The translations under genes and the position numbers were made by a program. From positions 326,089-390,088 of the forward strand of contig NMRA01000399.1 of assembly GCA_002633005.1 (NCBI GenBank): a DNA stretch of 64,000 bases, read 5' to 3'. This stretch comes from Phoronis australis (Eukaryota; Animalia; Phoronida). Positions 6,601 through 53,824 of this stretch are shown in pieces (position 1 is the first letter of the stretch; each line of letters starts with the position of its first letter). The notes beneath the pieces were generated by a model. The model was given only the letters and a program-made list of their open reading frames with translations. It was not told where the DNA came from and made no database searches.

Positions 6601-9600
6601 TCCGCCTGGTGTCCCTGGTCCTATAGGGAAGCCTGGAATTCCGGGCCATCCAGGTGTGGATGGCAACCCGGTAAGTTGAGATGGACACGTTGGTGTTTGA
6701 ACGCTTACCGCCCGTCGTTGTGATTATTTGGTCACAAAAAGTTTCGTCGACGATCCGATGAATTTGCGATAAAAATATGGCATGTCTGGACCACCCGACC
6801 GGGCATCGGCATAAAAATCATCAAGCGTCACTACTGATCCAATGAAAAATCGCCCGATCATGCTGGGCATCGCTGCATCCCGAAATCCTCGTGCATTTCC
6901 GTACCCTCAAATTTCCCCTTGGAGGTGAACGCTGTATGCGTATATGTGGACTTCACTCATATGGCAGGTCATGTGACTTTCAAACTGGAGAATAATTGGC
7001 CACATGTCTGAAGTTCTCACATGCGCACATAAATTTCAGCGCCATGCAGAAATATGAGGCTACAAAAATACCTGAGATGTTCCAGATGTACACTGGTACA
7101 GAATACTTTCCGCGGGATCGGCCTAGCAACTTGTTGAGACTAAAAGGAATGGAGTGTGGCGTGTAAATTGCTAATTTACTTTAAGAACGAATTTTGTGCC
7201 AAGCAAGATCTGACGTAAATGATCAATCTTTATCCCATACGCTTTGAATCAGTCGCGTGCAATACGGCCATGCAATATATATAGTTTTCCGCACTACTTC
7301 AACAGTGACCTCTGACATGGAAAGTTCAAAAGGTATGTCAATGTTGACTAGACGTCGTTTGCCGGTTCGATCACCAAACTTTCCGAAATAGTTTAAAGTA
7401 ATTCAATTGCAGCAGTGTAAATAACACTCAAAATGCAATCAGGTCCCAAATGTAACATCTGGTACAAAACTGTTAATTATATGACACTTCTGTCTAAGAT
7501 TTCAATAGCTAAATATTATACCGTCTGCAACTCAGGCGCCGATTCCTCTGTAACAGTATCAAATATTGTTGTTATTTAACTATTCAATGCACGCACAATT
7601 GCCGTTGTTTTCATCTTTGTTATCTCTTTTCAAGTAAGAAATCGTTACATTTTAAACTTACTACAGAAAACTTGTAACCTAACGCGCAAGTATATACATA
7701 TAGAATGCGATCCGCCACGTGAACAGTCTGGGTGAAGTATTTAAAAAATCAGCCGAAAAGGTGAAAGAAACTTAAGAATTCGAAGCTTATGGTATAAATA
7801 CAAAATCCGTTCTCGGTCGATACGCGGAATAATGTCTCGTGGGATATTACTTCATCTACGCCATTCTCGGTACGTTTTGTGTATTTATTTAGTTTATACC
7901 GTGACTTAGTACTAGGCACCGTACTGTTTCACCCTTGTTATGATTTAAATCTACATTGCGTATTTTGACCAACAATTGTGTCTTGGCGTTGCAGGTTTTT
8001 CACGTTCTAATTTTCGTCTGTAGGGTATGCCAGGACCTCGTGGTCTATCGGGAGAAAAAGGCGAAAAAGGACCGGAAGGACAGCCAGGCCCGATGGGATA
8101 CCCAGGGCAACGTGGGTTGAAGGTAAACACGAAAACCTTAACTTAACGGTCATTACACTTTTTGTGACCTTGGGCATCTCGCGTAGTACATTGCAGTATT
8201 GGAATCGTTTACATTATAGCTCTCCTACTAAAAGAATTCGAAAGCTCTGATATAAAAACTCGTTCTGGTAAGGAACGCTCGCCACATCCTTGCTATGGAA
8301 ATTAACAATAGTTAAGGGATGTCGATACTGAGTACGAAACACGTTGTTTTGTGCTAATTTAATTTGATGTTTGGAAAATGTTAATTCTGCCTACACGTAC
8401 GTTTGTTTTAAGAGTTTATCCGATTTACCTTACTCAAACCTGCGCAGTCATTTTCCTTATTGTCGTCTTTCTCTACCTTCACGTTAGGGTGATTCGGGAA
8501 AACGGGGAGCTCGAGGCTTTAAAGGTGAGATAGGGCAGATGGGGACAGACGGACCAAAGGGAGCTATGGGCCAGAGAGGCGAAGTTGGATTGAAAGGAGA
8601 TAGGGGCGTAAGGGGCGACGATGGACCACAGGGACCAAAGGTATGGATTTGTGGTTTTAAAAGAAACCTCGGAAACGTGACATGCAGTAAATTTTCATTG
8701 TATTATACGGCGCTGTCGTGTATTTTGACAAGATGGGGTTTATTATTTCGTTAGTGTACAAGTTAATCTTTTTCTAAAATGTAGAATCACATGATCAAAT
8801 TCCGCTACTTGAGCTGGTATCTAGATGGCAATCCTTTGCAAACATTTTACATTGCAATCGCACCTGAAGCGTAATTATGGAGAACTCTGTCAGAGACGAA
8901 TCGCCCAATGAGTGCAAATTTGATTACAGGGTGCTGTTGGACCGGTCGGCGAGACTGGGCCTTCGGGACCACTTGGAGAGAAGGTAAAGTGCAATCCTTC
9001 TATACTTGAGCCATTCATTTTATCTGTTTTTTTTTTAAAGTTATGACCTCTGATCTCTTTCCTTGGAACATTGATCTCACTATCTTCTTCATCAAGACTA
9101 GAATGGATCTTTGAGTTGTTGAAGATTAGGAGTCCGTTTCTGCCTAACTCAGATCAAAGTCAAGCTAACTTAAGACCAAAGTCAAGCTAACTTAAGACCA
9201 AAGTCAAGCTAACTTAAGACCAAAGTCAAGCTAACTTAAGACCAAAGTCAAGCTAACTTCAGGCCAAAGTCAAGCTAACTTAAGACCAAAATGTCTTTGT
9301 CCCGTTTCATGAAATTTGTTAAGACCAAAATCAGTCTAAGCTAAGACTTGCTACGGAGTAGGTTTAAGATTGCACTATTATCACTGTAAACTGATGAGAA
9401 ACGAATTACGTTGACATTTTTCTCAAACTTATGTCCCTACCTAAGCAATGTCAAATTGAAGATAGTCTGTAATCGGCCATGTAAGACAATGCGGCGCGAC
9501 TTACCGGCATATGTGAAGTGATATTTTTCGGCTAGCTACACTGGGGTCTTCTCAGGCAAACAGGATCCAATTGTGTTCAAAATATACATAGATCTTTCTG

Positions 9601-12600
9601 ACCATCCGTCTTAACTTAGCCTGAATGTCGGTCTTATCTTATAAGTCACATTTACATCACAAAAGTTGACACGGATCAGTTGACACGGAACGTGATGATC
9701 GGGCGCAAGTATGTGTGTAAACAGGACTGACAAGGAGCAAACTGACACCACGGTGACAACTTTTGTCACCCGTTTGTGAGGCAGAGCAAGTTATGGCCGA
9801 TCATCTTACTCGCGTCGACAATATGTCTAAACACGAAACTGGGGCAAGACGGAAGGGATTATCTCTATTGCGCTTGTCAGTTGCGCCGTGTCAAAACTAA
9901 AACTTAATTTCTAATTAAAACCAGTTTCATATTGGAACCTTTTGTATTGTTTGCGCTTTAATAATTCGAATTAGCGTTCCTAACTACACGTGATGAAACA
10001 TGGACCAAAGTAAGTTCACTGAACGCGTCAAGGAGAAAATTCGCCATTTCTATATTTATTCCAGTTTGAAGTTCGCGTTCAGTTTGACCTTGTGAGCGAG
10101 GCGTCCCGAGACATGCAGAACAAGCACTATAAATCGATCCATAATTTCTAATGTTGCCAGAATTTGGGGTGTGGGATACGACTACCATTAAATGATGCCA
10201 TTCATTATTTAATTTTCACCTTAGTTATCAACGTATGATAGTTGACAAGAACTTACACCAGTTGAAGGCGAATTTTATTCCTTACGTGAACACTAACTTT
10301 TGAAATGAGTTAATATCTGAAAGTTCCTATAACTGAGTGAATTTTGGGACCTACAAGGGTTTCCTTGATAATTACTTTGAGCCTTGAGTTGTTCTATTCA
10401 AATTTATGCTAGACCTCAGAAATTATCAATTTTCTTTCTGTAGTTCATTTCTACTACGTTCTGAAACCAAGTTGAGAACACGAATGTGCCGTTCTGATTC
10501 CAGGGACAAATGGGTATTCCCGGATTTCCGGGCTATCCGGGTCCTCCAGGCGAGAAAGGTGGTACCGGAGCTACAGGTCGACGCGGACGAGATGGGCAGA
10601 AAGGTTCCACTGTATGTATATCTCAATGATAATAATAGCTTCACATTGACATTTCAGGGACAAATGGGAGTTCCCGGATTCCCGGGTTACCCCGGACCTC
10701 CGGGAATGAAAGGTCACCACGGCGCCACAGGCCGAAGAGGCCGAGATGGTGAAAAGGGATCACCCGTATGTTATAACTGTCTGCCACCGGTGTTTCACGC
10801 TTGTCGCCGAAAAAAAATTAAGCTGACGTGTGCTTTTGTCTTATTGTGTAACCGAAATGCTTGCTTCTTCTCGTTCTGTATGTTGTGTTGAAAGTACTAA
10901 GCATTTAGTATCTAAAGCTTCAGTGTTTTGAGCAGTGCTCTTCGAATAGCCATGGATTATGACAACTAGTTAGATGCTTTAGATTACGCTGTACATTTTA
11001 TAACAAAATTGCTTTTTAGTTTATAATTAATGAAAATAATTTGAGCAAATATCTGGAAAACCCGGAAATTGAAGCTTGTGATTGTGCTGTTACGTTGCGT
11101 GTGTTAACACAGTTACGTGCATTGTAGGCTTGAGGAAACAAGTGGCCTTTTATACTGAGACCAGGCTTCCTCCTTGAACTTCTTGATTAATTGCGGCCTA
11201 AGACAAGAGCTGATTTCCCATTGAAGTTTCACCGTGTTTTATGGAGGAATTTTGTGTCGTACAAGGAAGCGATTGAGCTCATATAATGACCACGCGTGAA
11301 TGTTTACTTTAGCTATCTATATTGTGATATGCTTTGTATTGTAGTTTGATTTTCCGAGATGAAAATGCTGTCGATGAAAACGTGTTTACAATATGCAGTA
11401 ATCAAAGAGAGTCAGGTCTGTCAACAGTTTTATAATACTGTGGTCAAATGATTAAGGAGTCTGGTAACCATATATTACATCTCCTCATTATGCTGTTAAT
11501 TTGCTGCAGGGAGACCCCGGTCCTATTGGAGAAAGGGGGTCACGAGGCCCACGGGGTCAGCGAGGCGAGCGCGGAGGCCCAGGTCCTGAAGGTGAGCTTG
11601 GATTGTAGCCGCGCAACACACGCCACAAAAGCAGAAAAATATCATTTTATAGTATCACTTTAATGGGAAAGGTTATGTTAGAACATTAGATAAAAACCAT
11701 GTACCAAAATTTGACTGTAGCCTCTTACATAGGTTCCGTATTTTGAGAACCAGTCCGATGTTCGATGGAGAAAACTAAATAAATTCTCAAAATGCGATAC
11801 CCTGTATAGCCATTACCCTAAAGCTGTTTGAAGGCAAAATTGGATGCAGCCACAAGAAATGTTTCATCCTGTGCATGTTTTGTGGAAATCTCACGCCATG
11901 AATGTTCTCAAACGCTGATACATTTTGCAGGACCCATTGGTGCAAAGGGGGAATCAGGTCCCGCCGGACCACCTGGAGCAACAGGAGTGCAAGGTCCCAT
12001 GGGACCACAAGGCCCACCAGGCTTTCTTGGACCACCAGGAGGTGCAGGGTTCCCCGGAAAGGACGGTCTTCCCGGACACCCTGGAGACAGAGGCGAAGCG
12101 GTAGGCACCTTGGCCTTTGTCTTACTTCTGCGACATAGTCTACTACATATTTACTGAACAGTTACAAGTTCTACTAGTCAGTGTTCTTGGGAGCTTACCA
12201 ATATGTACTATCTGCCACAGGTCTTCCTCTGAAGGAGAGTGGAAGGTAGAAGAACGATAGGCACAAATCCGTAGACATGTGAAATACGTCAATTTACTTT
12301 TATCTTGTTCCTGATGCATCAGCTGCAAGCCACAAAAGAATTTCTCAATAGATGGAGCTGCATACACTCATCCCCGTAGTGAGGAGTAGCCCTTTGAAAG
12401 AACCATGTAACGGCTTCTCATGAATTAACTGAACAAAGCCACATTCTGACGTTCCGATTGGTAGGAAAATAATACAAAGACGTTCCACTTAGATTTTGGT
12501 TAATACATACAAATACTGCGGCGTTGACCGATGAAAAAACTCTTGGCGAAGAGTGTGGCATGCTGGTAAAAATTCAAAGTTGTGTTTTACACGTGCTATT

Positions 12601-15600
12601 GTCTGTGTTGTTCATTTCTGTGTTTTACACGTGCCATTGTCCGTGTTGTTCATTTCTGTGTTTTACACGTGACATTGTCCGTATTGTTCGTTTCTGCTTG
12701 ACCATTTACATTCCTGACTTCTTGAGTATTTCTGTCACAAATGGACAATGTTTAATTTGTGGGAGGAGTTTATTGCATGCTCCACCTCTTATTGCGTAAC
12801 ATCTTTCTCGATTTCTATAGGGTATTCCAGGCGAGGCTGGCCAACCAGGACCTGTAGGCGTCCCAGGTTTGATGGTAAGGACAGTAGCGCTGTCTGTTGT
12901 TTAGTTTCTGCAATAAAATGTTCAAAACAAAAGTAAATGTACATCTCTAGTACAAACCTTTTCGATTCGAGTGTGTTTTACACCGTAAATAACTTCTACA
13001 TTCTTCCATTGTGACCCAAGTTTGTCAGCTTCATCTCTATTTTTTGGTTCAACGCTCGATTTTGCCGAATCATAGTAGTCGACAAATGAATTAGGGGATA
13101 TTGGTTTCATTGTGATAAAGATGAATGTCTATTCCGTTGAGATTCATATCTCTCGGCGTTTTAATCGTACGTAGCCTACAGAATTTAATCCACTGGAATA
13201 CGTGTACTGTACAATGTGTGACTAATTGTTTTACAAATGACTGTATATGAACTGTACAATGTGTGACTAATTGTTTTACAAATGACTGTATATGAACTGC
13301 AGGGTGCCCCGGGAGCTGTGGGTCAACCGGGAGAATCGGGCCCACCCGGTATTCCAGTAAGTGACAGCACTCCCTCCGAGCACCATTATGTTGATCCCGC
13401 TCATCCATCAATTAAACTCGACTTCACTTTAGTCTCAATACCCGTCTAGCGTCTCAAAGTGGTAACTGCTAATCCCAACCTGCTTCCTTCACACTACCTT
13501 ATGTCTTTTCCACCCACTTCCGTTTCCTCCATTTATCAACCTCTGCTTCACGCCTCAGTTTGGTTATGTATTATCAGGGTCCTATCGGTCTTCCGGGATT
13601 TCCTGGAGAGCAAGGTCAACGTGGAATTCCGGTAAGTATGATGTAACCGGAAGTAAATCGTGTTTCCATGTCACATTTGGCACAGGAATATTTCAGGTGT
13701 GAAAAATGTAATGAATTTTTTTCTTCAATTTAAAGTGTCGTCATTCGATTCTATTTTTGCGACTTTCTATTCAAACCAATACAATACAAGTCAGGTTTTT
13801 AATGAAAAGGCTTGAAATATTACTTTTCACAATCATCTGGAGATGCATCGCGTTACGCATCAAGACTGTCGTGACGACGCATTTAGCTCGTGCGCAAACA
13901 GCCACGTCCAGTCACACGGTAATCCGTTTTATAGGTCAAAAATGGGTAAGCTTATCATTGGTTGGAAACCTTATTTGGCAAGAGCATTACTCGCGCGTCA
14001 CCACTGAAGTCCCCAAGTCCTTAAAGTGGCCAGAGATGGGCACTTGAAGAGTTTTAGAAAAACAGGCTGCTGCTCTTTTGTTTTGTTTTGTTTTGTTTTG
14101 TTTTGTTGCGTTCCACTGCACGCTATATAAAAACCTGTGTATCATTTGATTTTAGCTTTTCGTCTTTTCCCACACCACTTACTGTGACAGTTCCGTTCAA
14201 AGGAACAGCGTTCTCCCATTTAGCCCGTGCATGTAACTGTTCCATTTCCTACGCCCATTCCGTGGCTCATGGCAAAGTCGATAGATGTTTTGGTGCATAT
14301 TTAATACTCGTATGGAAAGAACCGAGAATCAGTAGTTTGATTGATAATGACTACACTTGAATATTTTCGCCTGTTTCACAGAGTCGACTGGCTAAGGCAT
14401 CTGACTGGTACGTAAACCGGAAGTTGTCATCAATTTCACCGTGAACTTTCGTTATTTAGATGAGCTCGTTGTGTCAATTTGATCAGAGCTTCTGCTTGTA
14501 CTGGCTTAATCAAATTCTTCGTGAAGAAAACGTAACGGCTTCACTTCAATGACGTCATTCCTTCGTATAACATTTGCTTCATACATTGTATGTTGACTAC
14601 TAAACGATTACGAATCGTCACCTATGTTTTGATGGATAGTGTAATTACCACGATTTGTTTATAAGTTGTTTTGTGACTTACGAGCCTTATACAATGCGGC
14701 GTCATAACGCTTTTCTCCTTAGTTTGCGATTTCTGAACTGATTACAATCATTTTAAGGCGTTCTGCCGCAGACATGGCTTCGAGTAATAGACGAATCGTA
14801 TGGTGCTACGTTTTGAGAACGACAGTACTATGTTTTAATTAAGATTGTAAATGACCGAATTGTTTCTTGTTTCATGGCGTCGTCTTTAAAAACACGTGTG
14901 CGGTATTAGACGCCATTATAAGCAGCAGAATATCACAGTATAATGTTTTCTCTCCAGGGACCGCCAGGAACACCAGGACTGCCGGGTGAGACAGGTCGAC
15001 CAGGCCCTCCTGTAAGTATTCTTGACCTCTGTCCTTCAGCTGCAAAGGATGTTTTTACAGCCATTCGATCGTACACGTGGCAAATTAACGGATTATATGA
15101 AACGTATACACAGCGTGAATTATTTGTAAGTCGATGTAATTTCCAAAATTCGTCATGTAAAGAGTACTGTAAAAGACGACTGTAGTTACATTATTTGGGC
15201 CACAAATTACTTTAAACAGGTTTTTCAAAATAGAAGTTAAAAGGTACTAGACATAATGCTTCGCTTGCAGTGTGGTTACAGAGTATGAGTGATGAAAAAT
15301 TAACAAGCAGTGGTGTTGACTTTTAGCTCCATAAAAGTTCAACGAATTTTTAACTTCAGTACTTTCGTTCAAGAATGATTGTGATTTCATTTTTCCAAAT
15401 GTTATGTTATATCAGTCTGCCTTGTTTCAAATGACCCCATTTTACCAGCACACCACACTTCAAGATACTGGCGAGTAAAAGTTAGTTTGATCACGTGCTT
15501 CGCTTGTAATGCGTGGCGATATCTCACGAAGTCTTGCTTGGCCTAAGTTTTCTCGCTAGAAATTTGTTCCAAATAACGCAGCCCATACGTTGTTTTATCA

Positions 15601-18600
15601 TACAAACCATGCTAACAGTGAAATAAAAATGTTCATTTATGTTGAGAATTCTCCCAAAATAAAATCTCATTTCCAACAATACTATATGTTACACAGCTGA
15701 AGAAGTATGTTTAACCATTCCATCTACACATTGTAGGGTAACCCAGGTCCACAGGGAATGCCTAGCACGGAAATTGGTCCACCTGGCCCACCCGGTCATC
15801 CAGGCGATAGAGGTCTGCCAGGACCTGTGGTAAGTACGTCACGTGTTTTTGTTGGTAAGCTGCAAATATTAGATCACCTTATTCGTATTCAATTGAGAAT
15901 TATGGTGTTCGTCACGAAATTATCCCGTCCAGATTTGAACACTCTACTTTCGCGGAGATATTAGCGAATTGCTTTAGTAGATTAGTTTTTGAAATGTCGG
16001 GAAATTTTTAGTCTTGTGTGTTACTAGATGCTGGCGTCACCATTCAAACTGTCTGCGATAATAAAACATTGTTGTCTTGAGAAAGATATGCAACGGATTT
16101 ACAATATTGTGTGTAAATGACGCCGTTGTATTTCGGACTAATGGACATCATTAAACTACGTCAGGGATATTCATGGTGAAACTAATGTAATGCGCCTCCT
16201 CCAGAGGGCGCCTCGCTCTAAAAGAAATGAAAACGCTTTGTAGTAAACATGCCGCGCAGAATCATAGTTATTTGCTCTCTGATGATTCGAAGGTTATTGT
16301 TTCAAACGTAGTGTATACATGTTGACTTCTATTTAACAGGGTAAGGATGGTGGAAGAGGTGATTCTGGCACCCAGGGTCAACCAGGACCTCCAGGGCTGA
16401 AGGGAGAGATGGGTCCGGTCGGTGGCAGTGGAGACAAAGGTCCGCGGGGACGACCAGGCAGCATGGGACGATCTGGAGCATCCGGTCCGAAAGGAGAGCC
16501 TGTAAGAAGCTGGGCTATTGAGAATTTTTGAAATGTCGAAGAGTTAGGAACATAATGCTTAGAAAACTGAAGAATAAATGTATGTATATTGGAGATAAAG
16601 GTTGACACAAAAAAATGAGAAAAAAGCGATTATTTATTTGCGCTGATGTATTAGGTAAACGTCATTTTGTCTCGCTGTAATGTGTGCCATAATTTCTGAA
16701 GAACAACCTATGGTAACATTATTTTCATGTAAGTAAGTGAAGTTTTAATGGCTAAATCTGTTCCGAGAGCTTTCTGTTTTATACACGATGTTTTTTGAAA
16801 TGCAGATGTTTTTTGTTCAACTGCTCGTGGCTTGCCAAATAGACATTAGCACTAATGTTTTGTCACAGGAGATCTCTATGGTTATTACAGTATATCAATG
16901 TTTGTTGTGATTAACTTCCGTTGTCAAAAAGAATGCAAAAAGCGGCAAAGTCATCGTTAAACGGGCACTGGTCTAGACATCTTGAGAAGGTCTACTCATT
17001 TAAATGTTTGGTTAAGATTTTACGTCTATATTATTTTTTAGGGTTTATTGAAAATGTCAAAGAAACAACTTTGAACCAAGTGTTTTATTTCCAATATGAT
17101 TTCTTTCTAGGGCTTAGACGGCATGCCGGGACCAGGCGGGTCACCAGGCATACAAGGACCCACCGTAAGTAATTTGGGCGGGTCACCAGGTATACAAAGA
17201 CCCACTGTAAGTAATTTGGGCGGGTCACCAGGTATACAAGGACACACTATTAGTAATTTGGGCGGGTCACCAGGCATAGGAGGATCCACTGTAAGTAATT
17301 TGGGGCCAGAAATTCAGAATTAATTTAAAGCTGCATTTCGCGCTGTTCAGCTGGCTAAAAAGGAAATTCGAATTGAACCCTTTTATTCTCCCAGATTCCG
17401 TCTCGTAATAGTCCATGATTTAATCCTATTTCCATTACCAACCTTTGAGTATCAGCATAGTTATCAATCTTCCGTGATCACTTTTCGCCTGGGTATTTGT
17501 AACTTCAATTGCTCATTTGAAAATTGACGTGTTGACCTTGACTTTGTAGGGTCTTCCCGGCGAACCAGGACCAGTTGGGCCACCTGGTGAGCCAGGCGAT
17601 AGGGTAAGTCTTACCACCAGCAGAGGCATACTCCTGTAAATAGAATTAAGTTCGGAAGGAAGGAACTGTGATCACGTGCTTCGCTTGTAATAAATGGCGA
17701 TGTATCGCGAAGGGTTACGCGATCTTGTGTTTTCGTAAGGTTCTCGGGTATATGAAATGCACTCTAGATCCGTGACTAAGAAATTTTCAAATTGTGACCG
17801 TGACTAGTATGTGATTTACACGATGGTTTCTTGAATTACAGTTGATGGTTGCAGAAGTTGATGATTCATTTAATTTCGTTTTTGTTAAAGCGTAAATGAA
17901 GAGTAAAGAACAGAATTAATTCACGTATCCACGAACTCATTGGTACCATATAGTCTGGCAAAATCTTTATTACCACGTGATCTTATGTACTATGTTAACC
18001 ATTTTGTCGTTTGAAAACCACTCCATACTCTCATCAAAAGAGCCGCATCAAATATAGCTAGCGTGCGTTCACTCTTTCAAAATCTTAAATTTATCAGATT
18101 TACAAACAATTCTCAAGCAAATATACTAGATCCTAATTTAGATACATAGTTCACAGTAATGATAGCAACTGTCAGTTTTAGGTGACTATTGTGAGGTAGA
18201 GACGTGTAGTCACCTTAAAAATCATACTTACAGTAGAAGTTCCCTCCAATATGGCACCAAATCATTTAATTTTGAGGTCGGGATCATGGACTAAATAATT
18301 AAGCCTCGTTTTCATCATAGGGTGAATCGGGGACAGTTGGAAGTAAAGGTTCCAAGGGTGAGAGCGGCAGTGTTGGCAAGGCAGGACCTCAGGGTCCGAG
18401 AGGATCACAGGGACCGCCAGGCATTCCGGTAGGAAATTAACAAGTCCAGTGATTACATGATCGTATTTGTAGCATCGTATCTCTAATGTGCAACAGAAGT
18501 CCAGGTGCACGCGATGTGCACGCGCAGCCTTAGATTACTCTCGTCATCTATGCAGCGTTGTCTCATCGTCTTCTTGGAATTTGTCAGAGCCAAATAATTA

Positions 18601-24600: not shown

Positions 24601-27600
24601 ATGGCCTTTTTATGCTCTTTTCTGCGCATCGTCCGTAGTGATGAGCGGAATCTGCAATTTTCTGACCACGCTTGGTCTCTGTTTGGTCAATGCACTGTTA
24701 GTTCCAACAAAGTTGGAGATTATCAAAACATACGTGTCACAGCGATCAGCTCATTTCAAGTGATCATCGTTATTTATATCCCTTTCGCTCTTTATCTAAC
24801 AGTAAACACTTTCAGGTAACTCGATGTCACGATTCCTAGTTCAGCCTGAACAATCACTGAAGATATTTAGAAAGTGAAATTGGGTAATCAAATCGTGCGC
24901 CGCCCCTAAAGTTGTAAGCGCCACTTCAAAATTAGTTTCTCATTACGTTTATTTTCACACACGCAGTGGAACAACGAGACTTTTTACAAAGCATGGAATC
25001 GTCTGTGCTATGAGTTATTACCAAATCATAACGGTAGGTGGCAGACGACGGCAATGGAAGCTCGTGTCTCTCGCTTGCTTTAATCGTAAGGCCATTCGGC
25101 CTCCCGTTCAGTAACGCTAGGTCCTCGCTAAAAAGCAAGACTTCGCGAGATTACATGAGATATTGCTGTGAATTTTAAATAAGAGCACGTGACTTTGACT
25201 AGGTTTTAGCTAGGTCCTAGCGTAGATCCTAGCGTCTACTGAACGCAAGCCAGGTATGGTATGTAACTCTATTTAATATGATAGATAAGGCCAAACCAAG
25301 CTAGTGTGAAACAGACCAAGAGCTGCGTGCTACTTGAGAGATCGTTGAAAGGCGTACACGTAGACTTACCTACTCGGCGACACACACGTAAACTTTTCAG
25401 TGAAGTATAGACCGGGAGAGTAGACCAAAATACCAGGTTTGTCGACATTTCAAAGTGTTGTAAGTCAATGTGGCAACTTTCGTTATTGAACTTGTGAACT
25501 ATTTGTCCAAGCTGTAAACCTGTCCACGTTTGCATTTCAGGGCCCAGTTGGCTCTCCAGGAGCGGTTGGTTCACAGGGCCCTATTGGCGACCCGGTATGT
25601 ACGCACACATTCGGTCCTCCTTACTGCTCTGTCTCATTATAAATAATCTCCTATGCATGCCTTGCGAATTGTATACAGTATTCCGTGAAACGAACAGAGC
25701 TGCACAGAACTATAAATTTAGTCAGAATACACCTGACACCGTCTGTTGGCACACAGTAGACTTACTCTCCTGTCTGCCACCTTTTTACACAGAACATGTA
25801 CAGAAAACACATTGTGATGTTTTAGTATCACGTGAGATAATTTACTGTTTTCGTGGGACAGACTGACTCAGTAGAGATCTGGTGGACCTTATTTAATGCT
25901 TCAAAATGGCTTGTCTCATTATCACGTAAGGGGAACACACCAACGCTTGTCAAATATATATTTTTACGTCTGTCTAACATTATATTTTTCACGCGTATGG
26001 AGAGCGTCTTTAGGATTACTCAAATGGGCTAAAACAACATTGGAAAATTTTAGTCAGTGAGCGTTACCCACTCAAAGTCAATATTCTTTAATCAGCCCCC
26101 TGTTTCATTGCATAATCTCATAGATAATAGCCTTTTGTACTTTATGCGCAGCAAATACCAACGAAAACATAAGCTAACCAGTCCCAAAATCGTTCATGTT
26201 TTGCATTAAAGTGCTTATGTCAATGGTAATGCTTACACACCTCTAACCAATGTTTATAACTCAGTATGTCCCGTGACGTCATATGGTGTGGTAGAAAATA
26301 CGAAGTAGGAAGACGATACATTGTATATAATGCAACCCATAGATGCCGTCTTTAGGGAGAAAAGAGAGAAAACGCCACACAAAATCAGGCGTATTGAAGG
26401 CGAGTTTTATTGGAGTACACCCCCTCGAGCGACTGGAAATAAAAAGCATTTCAAATGTATTCTCTGTACAGGGTGCACCTGGGAAAGTCGGCTCGAAAGG
26501 AGAACGTGGTAATACCGGACAGAAGGGTGAACCGGGTCTCGCGGTAAGTTTTCTTTTTGAGTGTACGTTTAGTAGAGTTCGTTAGATATATGCTCGTGAG
26601 ATTGCAACGACCTCTGCAGTACCAGTGCAGAACTTATAAAGCTGCTACCTAACCACCTGGGATCAACAAGTAACTTTTGAGTTTGACCATTTATATTGAT
26701 TTTAAGCTTATCTTATTGATTTCTGGACTCGTTATTGTTCGAGACCATGCCTTATATGTCGCCACCGTCAACCAGCCACACGTTAATGAATTCAATCTTT
26801 GTGTGCCTCCAGGGTCCACCTGGCCCACCAGGACCTCCCGGAGACGCCCAGCCGTTCCCCCTGCACATGTTGGGCGATGCCACTTCTGGTAAGAACAGGC
26901 GTCGCCGTCGCGCCGTGAGCGATGACAACAAAGGCGAAGAAGATGAGCTGCCCGACCTCAATGAAATCCCCATTACACCAACGATCGGACGTGTCGTCGA
27001 AACGTTGTTCGGTCAACTTGATGATATGCGGGAGGACATCGATTCCATGAGATTCCCCAATGGTTCCCGAGAAGCCCCAGCAAGAAGTTGCAAAGATATC
27101 TACTTGGGTCATCCCGACTCCAAGGATGGTTCGTAACTCATTTGAATTATCGAGTCAAAGCACACTATGTGGAAGAACAGAACTCACCGACATGATGTCT
27201 AAACCGTGCTGCGCCTTTGTCAAGTCTTGCGATGCCTTTTTTCGCTGAAATCAATTTACATGAGCACAATAACATTGTTAACAAATTGAATTTTTCTGAA
27301 CATTTCTCCAGGGACGTTTTTTGGTGTTTCTGATAAGGACGCGAGACACAAGAAAGCTCGTTGGCAAGTAACCATTAATGTCTGAAAACTCAGTTAAGAG
27401 GGTGAAAATTTGTTCTTTTCGCTTTTCATAGTCGAACTATATCAGGAGACTATGGTTAACATAACCTTTACGGAGACAGGAGTCTTCCATTAACATTCCT
27501 GTGTGTAACTACTCTAAGCATAAAGTTGTTTCTAGACTCTTCCATTTGAGCACGATGTTTTGCAGGCTGGTATTGGATAGATCCCAATCTGGGGGTCATC

Positions 27601-29316
27601 AACGACGCTATTCAGGTGATGTGTAACTTTAGCAAGGAATACCAACAGACCTGCCTATTCCCGACACACGACACGAGGATGGTGTCGCCGAGACATTGGA
27701 AGAAAGGCAAGGATAACACGTGGTTCAGCGAAATGGATCAAGGTTTTGAGGTGATTGCAACAGCTGATCATGTATTTTTATTATTATGTGTTGAAGGTAA
27801 TCCATGTTCAGATTATCGACGCTTGAATTTCGCATACTGTAGTACATCCAAAATAATGTCTGGAGTTCACTGAATTTTTGGAGAAGGTAAAAGGTGAATT
27901 CTACGATTCAGATTCATATTGCTTAAAGTCATATTTTAAGTATGGTTTTGAAAAAATCTGTGGTGTGAGTAGAATCAATGCACTGGAAATTACTCGACTC
28001 GATACAACCTTATGAGTTCATACTGTCATAACGAATAGTTCAAGTCGTCTTTATCCTTGCTCTCTGTGAACATAGTTATACAATCACCACTACTGCTACT
28101 AAGACAACATTTAAGCTGGTCACAAAACAACTTTTGATGTAAATCACTTACACTAATGAAATTGTTCGTTAGTCAAAACCGTGTGATCTGGGATTGTAAC
28201 CTTAATTTTTATTGTTGCTTGAGAAATGGCCTCGAGCAATAATAAGCTGTTTGTTCTTTGCTAGAGCAAAATCGCTTCTCATTCGAGCAACAAAGGAAAT
28301 TTTGTAAGCCAATTTTATAGCAGCTAATGCTCTGTAGTAAAAGTTCATCGCCGCTTTAATTTTATGCTTACTTGAACGCGCAACTTTGACCTGTTCCTTC
28401 AGATTGATTACGGACAGAAGACACAGTTGGCGTTCCTTCGTCTACTTCACGGCGAGGCTTCGCAAGAATTTACATACTACTGCAGCAACGCCGTGGCACA
28501 CTATAACAAAGCCAAGGGTAACTACGCCAAGGCCGTCGTGTTGCTAGGAGCAAACGAGCACGAGTGGACGGGTCCTACAATGAATGGGTTCGACGTAGTC
28601 TATGACGGATGTCAGGTAAGCACTTACGTCATGCTAGAAATAATTTTTGAGCATTAACTTATGTGTTTCTTTTATATTGGTCCTGTTGTACGTAACGCTC
28701 TTGGCCAGATCATAATGTGGGTAGGTTCAGTCTTTAGGAATGTTCAAAGTGGTGAATGTTTAGAGAATTAAACAATGACAGCCGGGAAGGTCGCCGAACT
28801 TTGCGGTGACCGGTAGAGAAGAGAAGACGACTGACATCCAAGGCGGGGGAAAGAAAAAATCTAAAATTCACCCGTCTTCTTCGAACAACTAGTAGCTATG
28901 AAACGTTGATCCTTGTGAGGTCTAAGTGCTTGGCTATTGACAGAAACCAAGAAAACTTAGAATCACATATCATTAAATTTAGTTAGTTGGCCTAAACAGG
29001 GTGTTAAGAAGTGATTGAATTGTTGAATTGTCGACTATGCAATGGACTAAGGTTACGATATTCCAAAGCGTGTGTTAGTCCTTATATTGGACCAGTGTGT
29101 TTTCCAATCAAACTGGTAACAGAATGATACACTTATTCGACAAAAACATTATTTTGATTTCCTTTTTTTCAGGAGAACAAAAATAAGCAGTACACCAAGT
29201 TCCAAATTAAAACAGTCAAAAAGAACAGGCTCCCAGTTATAGATTTCCAACCGAAAGATTACGGAAAACCATGGCAAAAGTTCGGCTTCGAAGTTGGTCA
29301 GCTCTGTTTCCGATGA
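657..29316 (+). CDS. Fibrillar collagen alpha chain, clade B (COL5/COL11-like); 5'-partial, spliced
   Basis: AG/GT-bounded exons read in frame: 657-794, 1546-1614, 2044-2208, 2999-3205, 5657-5755, 6518-6670, 8024-8122, 8488-8640, 8930-8983, [10504-10611 | 10658-10765], 11510-11591, 11931-12100, 12821-12874, [13303-13356 | 13578-13631], 14958-15011, 15737-15829, 16340-16501, 17111-17164, 17550-17603, 18321-18428, 18799-18852, 19141-19302, 20020-20127, 21015-21122, 21652-21759, 22299-22460, 23174-23227, 23855-23962, 24309-24416, 25541-25594, 26472-26543, 26813-27128, 27566-27750, 28403-28615, 29173-29316 (TGA). Helix exon sizes are mostly 54/99/108/153/162 nt. Minor-helix end [10 protein letters not shown], linker ...[14 protein letters not shown], furin site RRRRR, COLFI motifs [36 protein letters not shown]. 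Triplet-by-triplet similarity to alpha1(XI)/alpha1(V), recalled from memory. Confidence 0.95.
1030..1405 (+). mobile_element. Degenerate LINE (L2/CR1-like) 3' end
   Basis: AT-rich 3'UTR ending in a ctctcttgaaaagtagtg...ctgcag stem and an aataaatgaataaat tail; resembles the - strand copy at 56.7 kb. Confidence 0.35.
1448..1516. repeat. 28-bp tandem repeat, about 2.5 copies
   Basis: gccattgtgggccgcatgtcattctccc. Confidence 0.9.
3303..4612 (+). mobile_element. Non-autonomous Helentron/HINE (DINE-1-like) element with an internal tandem array
   Basis: Starts tttttatgcgcccac with an inner inverted copy (gtggtcgcat); internal ~145-bp monomers in a ~436-450-bp higher-order repeat; ends with hairpin aacgcgccgcgtt plus gctcttgtt. 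Confidence 0.6.
4685..5419 (-). mobile_element. Possible LTR remnant with a PBS-like sequence
   Basis: Inverted ends AATTACA...TGTAATT (4733/5419); on the - strand the end is followed by TGGTGACACCCC (PBS-like). Confidence 0.3.
5992..6242 (+). mobile_element. tRNA-derived SINE with a 14-bp target-site duplication
   Basis: Box A tggcctggttg, box B ggttcaagtcc, then cccttgagccagg core and an AT tail; TSD ttctgaaaaaatat at 5978-5991 and 6243-6256. Confidence 0.8.
6898..7067. mobile_element. MITE (second copy at about 38885-39045)
   Basis: TIR cctcaaatttc ... gaaatatgagg; internal gtca(t/c)gtgactttcaaa shared with the copy in cathepsin intron 2. Confidence 0.6.
9155..9290. repeat. 22-bp minisatellite x6
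   Basis: aaagtcaagctaacttaagacc. Confidence 0.95.
10504..10611 (+). CDS. Collagen helix exon 10a (108 nt; [36 protein letters not shown]), candidate mutually exclusive exon
   Basis: Acceptor ttccag|GGA, donor ACT|gtatgt, 12 perfect Gly-X-Y triplets; paralogue of the next exon. Confidence 0.88.
10658..10765 (+). CDS. Collagen helix exon 10b (108 nt; [36 protein letters not shown]), candidate mutually exclusive exon
   Basis: Acceptor tttcag|GGA, donor CCC|gtatgt, 12 perfect triplets; 30/36 aa identical to 10a; 46-nt spacer. Confidence 0.88.
12581..12696. repeat. 38-bp tandem repeat, about 3 copies
   Basis: tgtgttttacacgtgccattgtccgtgttgttcatttc. Confidence 0.85.
13206..13299. repeat. Exact 45-bp tandem duplication just upstream of the 13303 acceptor
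   Basis: actgtacaatgtgtgactaattgttttacaaatgactgtatatga x2. Confidence 0.9.
13303..13356 (+). CDS. Collagen helix 54-nt exon [18 protein letters not shown] (candidate alternative A)
   Basis: ctgcag|GGT ... CCA|gtaagt, 6 triplets. Confidence 0.85.
13578..13631 (+). CDS. Collagen helix 54-nt exon [18 protein letters not shown] (candidate alternative B)
   Basis: tatcag|GGT ... CCG|gtaagt, 6 triplets; preceded by a long pyrimidine-rich, AG-free stretch. Confidence 0.85.
17135..17302 (+). repeat. 42-bp tandem repeat x4 spanning an exon end and its 5' splice site
   Basis: ggcgggtcaccaggcatacaaggacccacc|gtaagtaatttg. Confidence 0.95.
23450..23790. repeat. 46-50-bp minisatellite, about 7 copies
   Basis: ctaaataacatgcgacagtttgtttgactgatagcgaggctactagcaaa. 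Confidence 0.9.
25098..25250. mobile_element. Small MITE
   Basis: Inverted ends ggcctcccgttcagtaacgctag / ctagcgtctactgaacgcaagcc. Confidence 0.55.
26813..29316 (+). CDS. Collagen C-telopeptide, furin site and COLFI C-propeptide exons
   Basis: Exons 26813-27128, 27566-27750, 28403-28615, 29173-29316 with standard COLFI motifs; stop TGA 29314-29316. Confidence 0.93.
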
Positions 29317-33289: not shown

Positions 33290-35620
33290 GGCGTGAATGG
33301 AGTGAGTAAATATCTTTTCAATTAATATATTTTGTTTTTAACAATTAATAATTTTGGAAGAAAGTTGAAGAGGCTCTTGGCTTTAGTGAGTGGTATTGGT
33401 AATAATGGGTTGAGCGGTGGAAGTGTTACACAAAAATCGACGTATCTTGAGGGGACATTTTTTGTCGTTTGGATGAATCAAGATTGATGTCATCATGAAA
33501 ATCTGAGACAAATGGGGTAAGAGCTTATTACAAGACTGATAGAAAAATTTTAGGCAGGAAATATGAAAAATGTCGTTTAAGGAAAGAAGACTCAGTGATC
33601 GAAATAACGGGTCAGTATGAGCTAGGAAGCATGATGACGTAATATTTCGAACAGCACGTTTTTGTAATACTTGTAGTCGACGGCAGTTGTGGAAACCTCA
33701 ACATGTTACAGCATATTAAGTAAATTGTGGTAAAATGAGAGATTTATAAATTAAAAGAAGAACATGTTGAGGAAATGTTCTTTTTATCTTGTGCAGTACA
33801 CCACATGTTTCAGCAGTCTTGTTTGCTCTTTCTTGTATACGTTTGTTCCAAGATAAGTGTCTTTCTACATAGGCGGATTTAGGGGGGGCAGGGGGCCCGC
33901 CCCCCCCCCNTGTTTGGGGGGGGGGCTCAGATCCAATGTCAAGTGTCAAATTCGGAACACGGTTTATTCGTAACGGAACTATGGCTAAGTATAGGCTCTC
34001 CCGCGATATCCCAGGCGACCGGCAGTGGCACTACGACTCCGTTTCCGTCGTCTGCTCCACTGTGCAATGAAGAAAATTTACTTCATTTTTTAAAGAAAAT
34101 GGAACCTGAGTGACGATGAAAAAACAGAAGCTGCTGGTAAGATGTGAATTTTAATAGAAGCCTTAGTGAATCACTCAGAAACTCATAATTCTCTCTTTGT
34201 CAAACCTTAACTTAAGACGATTTCCAAAGCAATCCCGTCATTATTGCCAACACGAAAAACGAATTTGGTCTTTTAGGCATTTGAAGACTATTTTAAATAC
34301 AAAAAAATTGTTAAGAACCGATTGCACAAAATATAAAACGTGTAATAAGCATTACAAAAAGAAGTAGGTTTCGCGCGCAAACGCTGTGGACCATAAACAA
34401 GTAGGTCTCTTAGTATACGATCAGTAATTAAGGCGTGGTGGTGTAGTGGTAAAGCATGCGCGCTCTATTGACCAGTTCGAGTCTCTGGTATCTTGCAGTT
34501 TTCTTGTTTGACACGTTTTTTTGTTTTTTTTTGCCTTTTTTCTTGGATAATACTTCAGGAATCAAGGAAAATGTTTGATTTTTAGAGGAAAAAACAGAAA
34601 AATTTCCTGGGCAGGAGGGAGGAAACCCCCCTCCCGACCTCCCCCCATTCGGTGCTATGCGCATCTACAATCGTGGTTTGCGCAAATGCTTACAGCCGGA
34701 CAAAATGTTGGGTCCCCCTTGCGATATCCTAGATCCGCCACTGGTCTAGATGTAATCCCAAAAACTTAAATGTTTCGACATATGTGATTGCCTTGTTCAG
34801 GATTTGCAGATCAGGAATGTGTTGCTCTTTGAGATATTTCTGAGGAAAGCTAAATAACATGTATTTGGTTTTTGAGGAGTTAAGCGAGAGTTTATTTGCT
34901 ATCACCCAGGCAGTTAGACGTGAGAGTTCATTGTTTAAGAAAACAGCTGATGCATCTGTTGAGAAAGTGCTTATGTTAAGAGGGGTGATAAGGCACGTGT
35001 CATCTGCGTACATGAGTACATCAAGTGAATTGGATAGATGTAGACCATTTACATATACCAGAAAAAGAAAGAGTCCCAGAATGGAACTTTGAGGAACACC
35101 AGTGGTAATCTGTAAGTTGGCAGATTCTTCTTTTGTCAACAAATACGAATTGCATTCTGTATGATAAATAACTTGTGAACCACTGTATTTCATTGCCACG
35201 AATACCGTAGTATTGTAATTTCTGAAGAAGAATTTTGTGATCAATGGTTTCAAATGCCTTTGAGAGATCGATAAATGGTGTTAAAGGATTTTGACCTCTA
35301 GCTAGAAAAGTGTGCATTTTGTCAAAAAGTTCAAGAGCAGCACGTTCAGTAGAAAAATTCGCGCGAAAACCATATTTGATGCTTGTAGAGAATTTCATTT
35401 TTATTTAGTGATGTATATAACTGCTCAATCACAATTTTCTCAAATAATTTGAAAATTTTTACGTTAGTATGGATAATGAACAATAGATGGATAGAACAGA
35501 GTCATCAAGATCATTTCCTTTGAATACTGGAATTGTTTTGCAATTTTAAGTTGATTAGGAAAGACTCCCTGCATAAGCGATTGATTGATAAGAAACGTGA
35601 TTGGAGGTGTAAGTTCGTCG
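33290..35620 (-). pseudogene. Degenerate non-LTR retrotransposon (L2/CR1/Crack-like) reverse transcriptase, frameshifted and interrupted
   Basis: YGFRANFSTERA, FIDLSKAFETIDH, TGVPQSSILG..LFLVYVN, MYADDT, NKLSLNSSKTKYM, FKFLGLHLD | RHLSWNKRI, LLLIYKSLILP, spread over several frames. Confidence 0.9.
33868..34743. mobile_element. hAT-like non-autonomous element inserted in the LINE
   Basis: Ends cataggcggatttagg(G)n ... cctagatccgccactg; splits the LINE peptide LHLD|RHLSW. Confidence 0.7.
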
Positions 35621-37495: not shown

Positions 37496-37548
37496 TGTAA
37501 TACATCCCAAGGGAGAGCCAGATGCGAAGTTTCTCGAAAATCCAAACC

Positions 37549-42229
<4,681 letters not shown>

Positions 42230-50900: not shown

Positions 50901-51800
50901 TAATCGGCGACAATGAAGCAGGAATAAAAAACTAAACACTGACATTTAAACGAATTTATCTCAGACAATACTCACCACTTGTTCGGATTTTTTTATCAAA
51001 ATTACGTAGATTTTCTTTCGTGAATGTGTTTTTTCTTTTGCTTTTATTTTCGCTAAATCTGTGAGGCCAGAATCTCCCGACATCCCCACCTAATGAATCA
51101 CGTGTCCTTCAGGTAACGCCTTCACATTTCCAGACACATCTTAGGACACGGTGTCTTACAACACAGTGGTCCAAAAGTATATACGTTACCAGTTACAGTT
51201 TTCAGGTTATTGGGTTTTCAAAGCGAAATTGCCCATTTGTATATTATCATGCCGCCGACTGCCCGAGATCACTTGAAAATTTTGCGGATCAGAGAGGGAG
51301 TCAATCAGTTACATAGTCAAAAGCTAGAACCTTTTCAAAAACAATTTTACGCTTGTGCTTAACATGGGTTGAAACGCAAAAATCTATGAAAATTTTAAGA
51401 CTTCAACCCTACCCAAAACTAACCCCTAGCTTGCGTTGTTTTGGTTGAATACCCGATTGCGTTTTGAATTCATTGTTCGACTATCAACAGAAGTCAACGT
51501 TTGGAGACGAGGTGTTGTCAAGCTTTATAACGTGAAAATGGATAAACTCTTCAGACAAAATATAATGATGTGGATGTCGAACGATTGATTTTTTCTCTTG
51601 TCGTTTTTTAGTTAAGTAATCAATTTATGTACCAGACAAGCTTTGTTTAAGTACACGAAATCGCCACAGACGGACCTAGCATTGTATTAAGGGTCCAAAC
51701 TTTTCGCCACACTTCAGACGTTTTAATGTACGCCGTTGCTAAACTGGAATAATAATAATAAATTCACTACATATCCATGAGTTTGGTTGTTTTTTTACAG

Positions 51801-53824
51801 ATCCTTTAGCACTGGCGAACCACGCCCCGGTCTTTGCCAAGTCGTCGCGTGTGACGCCAGTAGCAGAAGATTTTCGTGATACCCCCTTGAGTCATGGACG
51901 ACTGAATCTCGAATTAGAAGACATGGAAATGGGCTACACAGATGAGATGGTGAAGATTCCAGACTTCTTCATCCAAAGCAAAGACTCGCAAGAAATGCCA
52001 CTGGAGCGCTATGGCTTCTGGATGCAAGCGTTGACCAAAGGCAATATGGCGGAAATCGATTCCATCCTTAAGAATGCCGATACATTTGAGCAGCAGAAGA
52101 TGATCTGCGGCAAGTTTGTATTTCCCAACGAAGAAGTAGTTTACGCAACGTTTGGCCCTTTGATAGCTAAAGAGATGCTGCATTCGTACGTAGACTCGAA
52201 GAATTCGACTGGTCAGAGTTTAGTGTCCACCAACGCGCTGATTACGCTCTTGTCTTATGGTCACATGAACGTTGTTTTTAAATTGATCAAGATGGGCGCA
52301 GATGTACACTCCGCCGTTATGTTCAACTGGAATTTCATTCACGTTCTTTCTGTAATGAGTGTTCAGTCACCAACTAGCCAAGAAGCTGTCCAGATATTTC
52401 GGCAGATGAGAGAGTTCATCGTGGACCACCCGGATCTTGGTATGCCAGCTTTACACAAACTTCTTATGGCTGAAGACGATGTCGGTTTCCGGCCTGTCGA
52501 ACTGGCAAGTAGAATAGGCGCTTTGGACATGGCCAACGAAATCTTCAACACCGAAGGAGTGTACAGGTTCACCAAAACCTTAACTGGCTATCACAACGTT
52601 GCTTACTACGACATCACGGATTATTCGCTGCACGGAAAACGCAACCAATTCAATCCTTTGGCTTTACTTCTGTTGATCTCGTACGAGAGAGTGGCGCAGC
52701 TGACAAATTCCTCTCTTTTCTTAATGACACCTTTGATGATATGGGCGCAGAAATATATCAAATCATATTTGTGGTTCATGAGGTTTTGGATGATGTACAG
52801 ACTCGCTTATGTCATCTGTTTCATGGTCTTCTTTCAAGACTTGCTTGTGGTTACTTTCTTTGGGTTGAAACGAGATGCCATGCACGCGAAGGCGCGAAAT
52901 CTCAACACGGTTGCCAACGTGTCGAGTGAAGGATTTGATTTTGGTTGTGATATGAAGAGTTTTACTTCTTTCAGTCCTACCACTTTATTCTTAATCCTTT
53001 CACCCTTGCTTGGATTCCGTTTAATGACGACAATTATTGGACATACCTTTGATATGAGGATGTTCCTTGGGAAACTTCGCAAGGCAATGACGAAAATTTT
53101 GGCGGACGAGAAAAATCTGCGCACCATTGGTAACTGTGGCTTTTATTTGAAGTGCGACTTTTTGCATGTAATCTGCGCCGGGCTTGTGGCCATTTCTGTT
53201 CGAGCCATGGACTTAACTGAACCAGGCCAACGCACCTTCGCATTCATCTGCATTGCCGTGACAAGCATCTGCAACGTCTGGTCCTGTTTGTATTTCCTAA
53301 GACTTCATTCGATCGTCGGTTACTTTGTCGTCACGTTCCAAGAGATGATCGGTAACATGTTTAACTTCTTGATCGTGCAGTTTCTCATAATTCTATCCTT
53401 TTCTGTCACTTTCTTTGCCATCATCGGAAGCCAGTGCTTGCACACTGGCTTCGACTCCTTTGGACAGTCTTTTTATACAACCTTTATTACCATGCTTAAC
53501 ATGGTCGCGTTCACGAACGAGGTCGACATCCTGACGCCAGAAGGCATCGTGGTCGTTATTCTACACGTGATCTATGTACTGGTTGTGGCCATTTTACTTC
53601 TCAACTTCCTCATTGCTCTCATGTCAGACACTGTCAATCAAGTGTCCAAGTACAAAACAATCATCAACAGACTTCACCGGTTGTTTGTCTGTCTTACCAT
53701 AGCCAACCGACTGGGCTTTTTTGTAAGCAAGTATAATCTCTTCCAGTCGGAGTATATATTGAAAAACAATAAGGTCTACTTCGCCTCTACTTACAAAGAT
53801 GCTAAGCTTAGCGTGACAGCATAA
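51801..53824 (+). CDS. TRPV-like (TRPV5/6- or TRPVL-type) ankyrin-repeat 6TM cation channel, main coding exon
   Basis: 657-aa ORF, open back to acceptor ttttttacag|AT at 51800. Ankyrin-like motifs (SYGHMNVVFKLIKMGADVH, GFRPVELASRIGA), YDITDY, six hydrophobic segments, pore helix FDSFGQSFYTTFITMLNM, S6 ILLLNFLIALMSDT (cf. TRPV6 LMLNLLIAMMGDT). Confidence 0.8.

Follow-up and report, generated by a model that had tools for sequence, protein, structure and literature searches.

Exons A (13303..13356, + strand) and B (13578..13631, + strand) of a fibrillar collagen gene from Phoronis australis are probably alternatives for one slot of 18 residues in the main helix, giving two chains with the same 1015-residue helix. 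In the RNA, the donor at 12874 chooses between the two acceptors, and B is joined onward to the exon at 14958; no listed joint connects A with B or passes over both, and the length register of the helix has room for one of the two. A finished, translated message with A is likely. The RNA evidence comes from three stranded raw RNA-seq runs (X2, X3 and X4, 18-19% of each being read; counts separated by slashes follow this order) and from a contig set (X1); reads were compared with positions 8400-18500 and then with 12760-14950, and joints were counted from 3 reads and 2 starts upward.

The two exons lie in the 3' part of the gene, which on the + strand of the window (the whole stretch of DNA analysed, 64,000 nt) runs from 657 to about 29,315, the 5' part lying ahead of the window. 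It encodes, in this order, a minor helix of 13 triplets, a main helix spread over about 30 exons, and a C-propeptide of the COLFI type, recognized by PF01410 matches on two exons (E 1.8e-16 and 2.5e-9). With one of A and B, the main helix consists of 163 triplets, four residues and 174 triplets (337 triplets plus 4), 1015 residues in all; human fibrillar chains have main helices of 1014-1020 residues, according to the survey in PMC2852846. The four residues are a single imperfection, S-T-E-I, near the middle of the helix, in an exon (15737..15829, + strand) with joints on both sides. Outside the Gly-Gly columns, helix identity is 0.26-0.36 to seven type V/XI chains and 0.23 to two type XXIV/XXVII chains; with the minor helix and a main helix nearer V/XI than XXIV/XXVII, the gene is, as judged by sequence, a type V/XI-like (clade B) fibrillar collagen. 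In a tree of C-terminal regions (20 rows, last 235 residues), in which the window model lacks about 11 residues at its end and row P0187 is misaligned, it groups, not firmly supported, with the invertebrate chains Mytilus P0136 and rotifer P0137 (93/89), in none of the starred sets; together with the low identities, this placement suggests an invertebrate chain. Clade C (type XXIV/XXVII), as defined in PMC2852846 by a short helix (997 residues), the lack of a minor helix and a Gly-X-Y-Z imperfection at a set place, was considered and rejected, the helix having 1015 residues, not 997, and a minor helix being present; S-T-E-I resembles the S-T-V-L of type XXIV (P0240), yet aligns elsewhere and is not the clade C imperfection.

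Further features of the gene are recorded here in their own right. A phase-1 intron at 11592-11930, where phase 0 is usual for collagens, splits a Gly codon of the main helix between exons of 82 and 170 nt, its joint being found in 3/12/39 reads. The C-telopeptide (within 26813-29315) has a run of five Arg, which we take to be a furin-like site. The C-propeptide has apparently six Cys (five counted and one by eye in the last exon), and the chain may thus be one of a heterotrimer.

Four Gly-X-Y exons of 54 nt, at 12821, 13303, 13578 and 14958, follow each other in this part of the main helix, all with AG/GT ends, as the original prediction had them. The outer two are the common flanks: the exon before the pair (12821..12874, + strand) is entered by 12100>12821 in 4/21/54 reads and feeds both A and B from its donor; the exon after the pair (14958..15011, + strand) is entered by 13631>14958 and left by 15011>15737 in 12/13/32 reads. 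Exons A and B are equal in length (54 nt), both in phase 0, and fill one slot in the protein, each supplying six Gly-X-Y triplets as helix residues 445-462; they share P-G-E at positions 9-11, both end in G-I-P before gtaagt, and are 221 nt apart, again as predicted. Beyond this they are no more alike than any two helix exons of their size: 29/54 nt and 4/12 X/Y residues agree, which is background (the 45 pairs among the ten 54-nt exons of the gene have a mean of 26.0 +/- 3.6 nt alike, and 7 pairs surpass A/B). The pairing is therefore not fixable by likeness alone, and a duplication is suggested by position and size only. In their X/Y positions, A has the small residues Ala, Val and Ser with five Pro, and B has Ile, Leu, Phe, Arg and Gln with four Pro.

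That a chain has room for one of the two exons follows from the spacing of two anchors in the helix, GxDGxPGHPGxRGE and the next GxPGxRGLPG, counted in type V/XI chains. In the window gene this spacing is 74 with A or B alone and 92 with both. Among the best 120 of 1125 matches, 84 have the first anchor; 37 of them lack the second pattern and were left out, and of the remaining 47 chains, 23 have a spacing of 73 and none exceeds 79 (the other 24 comprise 23 at 55-69, which we read as automatic gene models missing an exon, and one at 79). The difference between 74 and 73 is due to the S-T-E-I imperfection, which adds one residue. The type V/XI chains thus bear out the 18 triplets that the prediction had given for this place in alpha1(XI), and with A and B together the helix would be 18 residues longer and lose its register with type V/XI.

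In the RNA, the donor at 12874 is joined to either exon, mostly to B. The original prediction had proposed to compare the junctions around the pair; 12874>13578, into B, is found in 3/21/48 reads (72 of 79), 12874>13303, into A, in 0/0/7 reads with 6 starts, in X4 only (7 of 79; 9%, 95% interval 4-17%), and 13631>14958, out of B, in 7/7/30 reads (44). The A-B joint 13356>13578, the joint 12874>14958 that would skip both, and the A exit 13356>14958 are all absent among the 15 joints listed. A and B are thus alternative exons with 12821-12874 and 14958-15011 as their common flanks. Had all four exons been constitutive, extending the helix by 18 residues, 13356>13578 would dominate; 72 of the 79 reads from 12874 skip A and no such joint is listed, which refutes this reading for these three samples and leaves it with next to no probability overall. 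The predicted mutual exclusion holds in that no listed joint connects A with B; its other half, the completion of A messages, is inferred, the joint from A to 14958 not being among those listed.

This missing exit of A is what weighs most against the preferred reading. From the ratio seen for B, about 4.5 reads of 13356>14958 are expected, and P(<=2) is 0.17. Among reads over 12760-14950 there are no loose ends behind 13356; those behind 13631 (6/7/32 reads) match the exon at 14958, and in X4 the 5 reads with a short overhang ahead of 13578 (agreement 0.99) match the exon ending at 12874, not A. The entries into A amount to 7/55 in X4 and 0/24 in the other runs (Fisher P=0.09). Joints below 3 reads or 2 starts are hidden by the counting threshold, so up to about 6 of 78 reads could join A to B. 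The X1 contigs stop at 12862 and start again in the exon at 14958, which makes them uninformative on A and B.

It is unlikely, though it deserves the most serious hearing among the alternatives, that exon A is a duplicate which is being lost or yields no product, its acceptor being used at times and its donor not, so that the intron is kept, a stop is reached and the message destroyed, leaving the B chain alone. The upstream joint of A is the only one seen, and read-through of the A-B intron (13357..13577, + strand, 221 nt), whose removal as an A+B joint is not seen, does reach a stop codon; the depth of 5.0 in X4 over 13352-13425, past the A donor, could include A reads entering the intron. 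The acceptor of A is pyrimidine-poor in the reference and stands behind a 45-nt tandem duplication (13203..13292, + strand; copies 98% identical, each with the branch-point-like word ACTAAT), with CTAAT at -81 and -36. All 5 unspliced X4 reads (2 starts) carry 8 extra bases behind 13299, which lengthen the pyrimidine run; the region of the A acceptor is thus polymorphic or unstable. X4 is also the only run with A joints, which may reflect either allele or tissue, and together with the 45-nt duplication the 8-nt difference may indicate loose constraint on this acceptor. The A donor has a 10-bp perfect complement at 13192-13201, longer than that of any other of the 34 donors (next 7 bp), which is a weak lead in the same direction. 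Against all this, the missing exit joint is within sampling error at the P of 0.17, the 10-bp stem is absent from the predicted fold (around A, z -0.72, no better than shuffles), and A, though deeply diverged from B, has kept all six Gly codons, contains no stop and ends at a consensus GTAAGT donor. An open frame with six Gly codons in register plus AG/GT is above chance. Outside the first two bases of the Gly codons, A and B match at 17/42 positions (about 1.2 changes per site), and had A drifted neutrally after the two separated, its chance of still having 6/6 Gly codons, the AG and the GT would be about 8e-5 (16 bases kept, assuming that half of the A/B change fell on A without selection); the 16 kept bases show past selection on A, not its present use. 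In its mean BLOSUM62 score to the matching vertebrate 18-mer, A is no further away than B (6.5 vs 1.4).

Improbable, too, is the reading of A as a cassette exon that precedes B in a minority of messages, lengthening the chain by 18 residues in a non-exclusive manner. As both exons are multiples of three, decay cannot remove messages with A and B, double inclusion of such tandem exons being described as beyond its reach in PMC4165533; nor was a steric block found, the best branch-point candidate lying 116 nt from the A donor, where the limit is about 50 nt, and A+B joints of fewer than 3 reads would be hidden. However, no 13356>13578 joint is found, the 7 entries into A in X4 predict about 4-5 exits (P about 0.17), and the 18-residue insert would break the type V/XI register, at a spacing of 92 vs 73-74.

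A strict exclusion of the two exons with a finished A chain, as the preferred reading has it, could be enforced in two ways, by regulation, which is the probable one, or sterically, through a branch point near the A donor, as in alpha-tropomyosin or OGDH, which is very improbable. In the accounts consulted, a steric block works only where the branch point is no more than about 50 nt from the upstream donor (PMC7969005), and exons with distant branch points have no AG between branch point and acceptor (PMC1431707). Branch-like words do occur 38 and 47 nt after the A donor (13394, 13403), inside the limit of about 50 nt given in PMC7969005, with a long pyrimidine tract further on; but they are followed by AGs at 13431, 13448, 13458 and 13557, so that four lie between them and the acceptor used, where the verified cases described in PMC1431707 have none. 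The original prediction had seen the layout of a distant branch point before B in an AG-free stretch at 13460-13556 (97 nt) after a CTAAT; the stretch is present as described, the CTAAT being a candidate distant branch point from a motif scan (13469..13473, + strand; A at 13472, 116 nt from the A donor and 106 before B). The layout itself fails at an unused AG at 13557-13558 (-20), which leaves a formal AG-free zone of 17 nt before the AG that is used. AG-free runs of at least 90 nt are found ten times in 1-29,300, including one of 119 nt before exon A, and the run before B is not above chance. An ordinary branch point is suggested by the same kind of scan at TTCAC (13547..13551, + strand), whose A, at -28, precedes the unused AG by 7 nt.

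What does set the acceptor of B apart is the C-rich pyrimidine tract before it (13477..13556, + strand), a candidate regulatory element which at 77.5% C+T ranks first among 34 introns and whose C+T content is reached at only 2 places in the 64 kb. The Rbfox-type TGCATG words pointed out in the original prediction are in place at 12774 and 14228; their number is at chance level (6 seen vs 7.0 expected in 1-29,300), with 2 seen vs 0.9 expected locally, in 12100-15737. The fold around B is no better than shuffles (z +1.34), and the 34 inverted repeats in 12875-14957 reach 21 nt at most, at 76%. Under the regulated choice that we prefer, two acceptors would compete with no steric block between them: the B acceptor, with the longest pyrimidine tract in the gene, would be the strong default and the pyrimidine-poor A acceptor the weak one, and A would win only in cells in which a putative factor on the B tract represses B, as in tropomyosin-type pairs. 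The upstream intron would be removed first, with the downstream one lagging, and the raised intron reads around the pair agree with this order. The intron after B (13632..14957, + strand), which has an in-frame stop at its fifth codon, is removed slowly or partly retained: sense reads over it amount to about 0.37, 0.16 and 0.13 of the depth of exon B, far above the other introns of the gene, where none of the runs has reads in bins such as 15140-15476; the intron reads in 12875-13577 have a lower depth than those in 13632-14957. The pattern agrees with regulated splicing that settles the upstream choice before the rest; partial retention would give the same. As to their origin, A and B would most likely descend from an old tandem duplication, and the pair may have been retained since a fibril depends on a constant length of the helix and leaves surface residues free to vary.

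The same gene has a second pair further upstream, for which the RNA supports exclusive use. Exon 10a (10504..10611, + strand, 108 nt), the minor member, is entered by 8983>10504 in 4/2/1 reads and left by 10611>11510, a joint found in one X1 contig and in 1/0/3 reads; exon 10b (10658..10765, + strand, 108 nt), the major member, is entered by 8983>10658 in 5/12/22 reads and left by 10765>11510 in 8/16/49. They are separated by a spacer of 46 nt and alike at 78/108 nt and 30/36 residues. A joint of 10a to 10b (10611>10658) is absent among the joints listed for X2-X4, and the X1 contigs show an entry into 10b as well as an exit from 10a. One may speculate, at somewhat short of even confidence, that the two swaps (10a/10b and A/B) together give up to four chains of equal length, that the choice is made by cell type, that A/B is old and exclusive by regulation alone, and that such recoding of the helix is commoner across animals than the literature shows.

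Beyond the collagen gene, the window contains a gene for a cathepsin L-like protease (37501-38714, + strand), with exons matching the I29 propeptide (E 3.2e-20) and Peptidase_C1 (E 1.9e-39); an intron-free frame of 693 codons (51743-53824, + strand) with an Ion_trans match (E 7.4e-10), which by eye looks like a TRP-type channel; and, at 34729-35404 (- strand), two overlapping frames with a YADD motif seen by eye, which resemble a broken reverse transcriptase of the LINE type.

In PMC2852846, fibrillar collagens are presented as having an invariant main helix of about 1014 residues, and splice variation as a matter of the propeptides. If the reading of A and B as versions of one slot is true, swaps of equal length could act on lateral packing, on stability or on binding sites with the fibril period kept, and one gene would tune the surface chemistry of its fibrils at an unchanged period. 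The pair would then offer two natural tests, one of the effect of 18 surface residues on a fibril, the other of how exons that are multiples of three can exclude each other with neither steric block nor decay. It also carries a warning for annotation, as a gene model containing both A and B would wrongly make the helix too long.

The literature covered, which includes few subscription papers, yielded no mutually exclusive exons inside a fibrillar helix; exon catalogues might list some. Among sequences, word searches for an orthologue with two C-terminal exons yielded 0/25 and 0/93 passing candidates; the named matches of a search with the helix exons, among the best 120 of 1125, are all from vertebrates; a search of the full library has none above 54% identity among the best 150 of 294; and the Atlas search returns generic fibrillar collagen clusters only. 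Vertebrate chains resemble the window gene in their architecture: COL5A1, COL5A3, COL11A1 and COL11A2 have a minor helix before the main one, the same register and a C-terminal COLFI domain, and vertebrate type V/XI has three 18-residue steps between the anchors. Unlike the window gene, the vertebrate type V/XI chains compared have one sequence at the A/B slot and do not have the four-residue imperfection. The known alternative exons of COL11A1 (6A/6B) and COL5A1 (64A/64B) are in the propeptides.

In the published accounts consulted, the only near parallel is the alpha2(IV) collagen gene let-2 of C. elegans, with its mutually exclusive exons 9 and 10 (PMC2119826). As described there, it is like A/B in offering two exons, each a multiple of three, for one slot of the collagenous domain, one being used at a time, and it is regulated by a factor acting on a flanking intron (PMC4165533). 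It differs in that it encodes a network-forming type IV chain, where the window gene is fibrillar; in that its exons differ mainly in an interruption of Gly-X-Y of 9-10 residues, where A and B are six perfect triplets; and in that its 30-nt spacer forces exclusion (PMC4165533), where A and B are separated by 221 nt. In this last respect the pair 10a/10b, with its spacer of 46 nt, is a nearer match to the let-2 exons, as reported, than A/B is. For A/B the closer likeness in arrangement is with exons 2 and 3 of rat Tpm1, alpha-actinin, and exons 4a/4b of OGDH, in which, as described, the downstream exon is the default and follows a long pyrimidine tract, the upstream one being rarer (PMC1431707, PMC7969005). 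The accounts of these three give an unbroken AG-free zone and place the branch point at most about 50 nt from the upstream donor, whereas the A/B pair has an AG at -20 and its CTAAT adenine 116 nt away.
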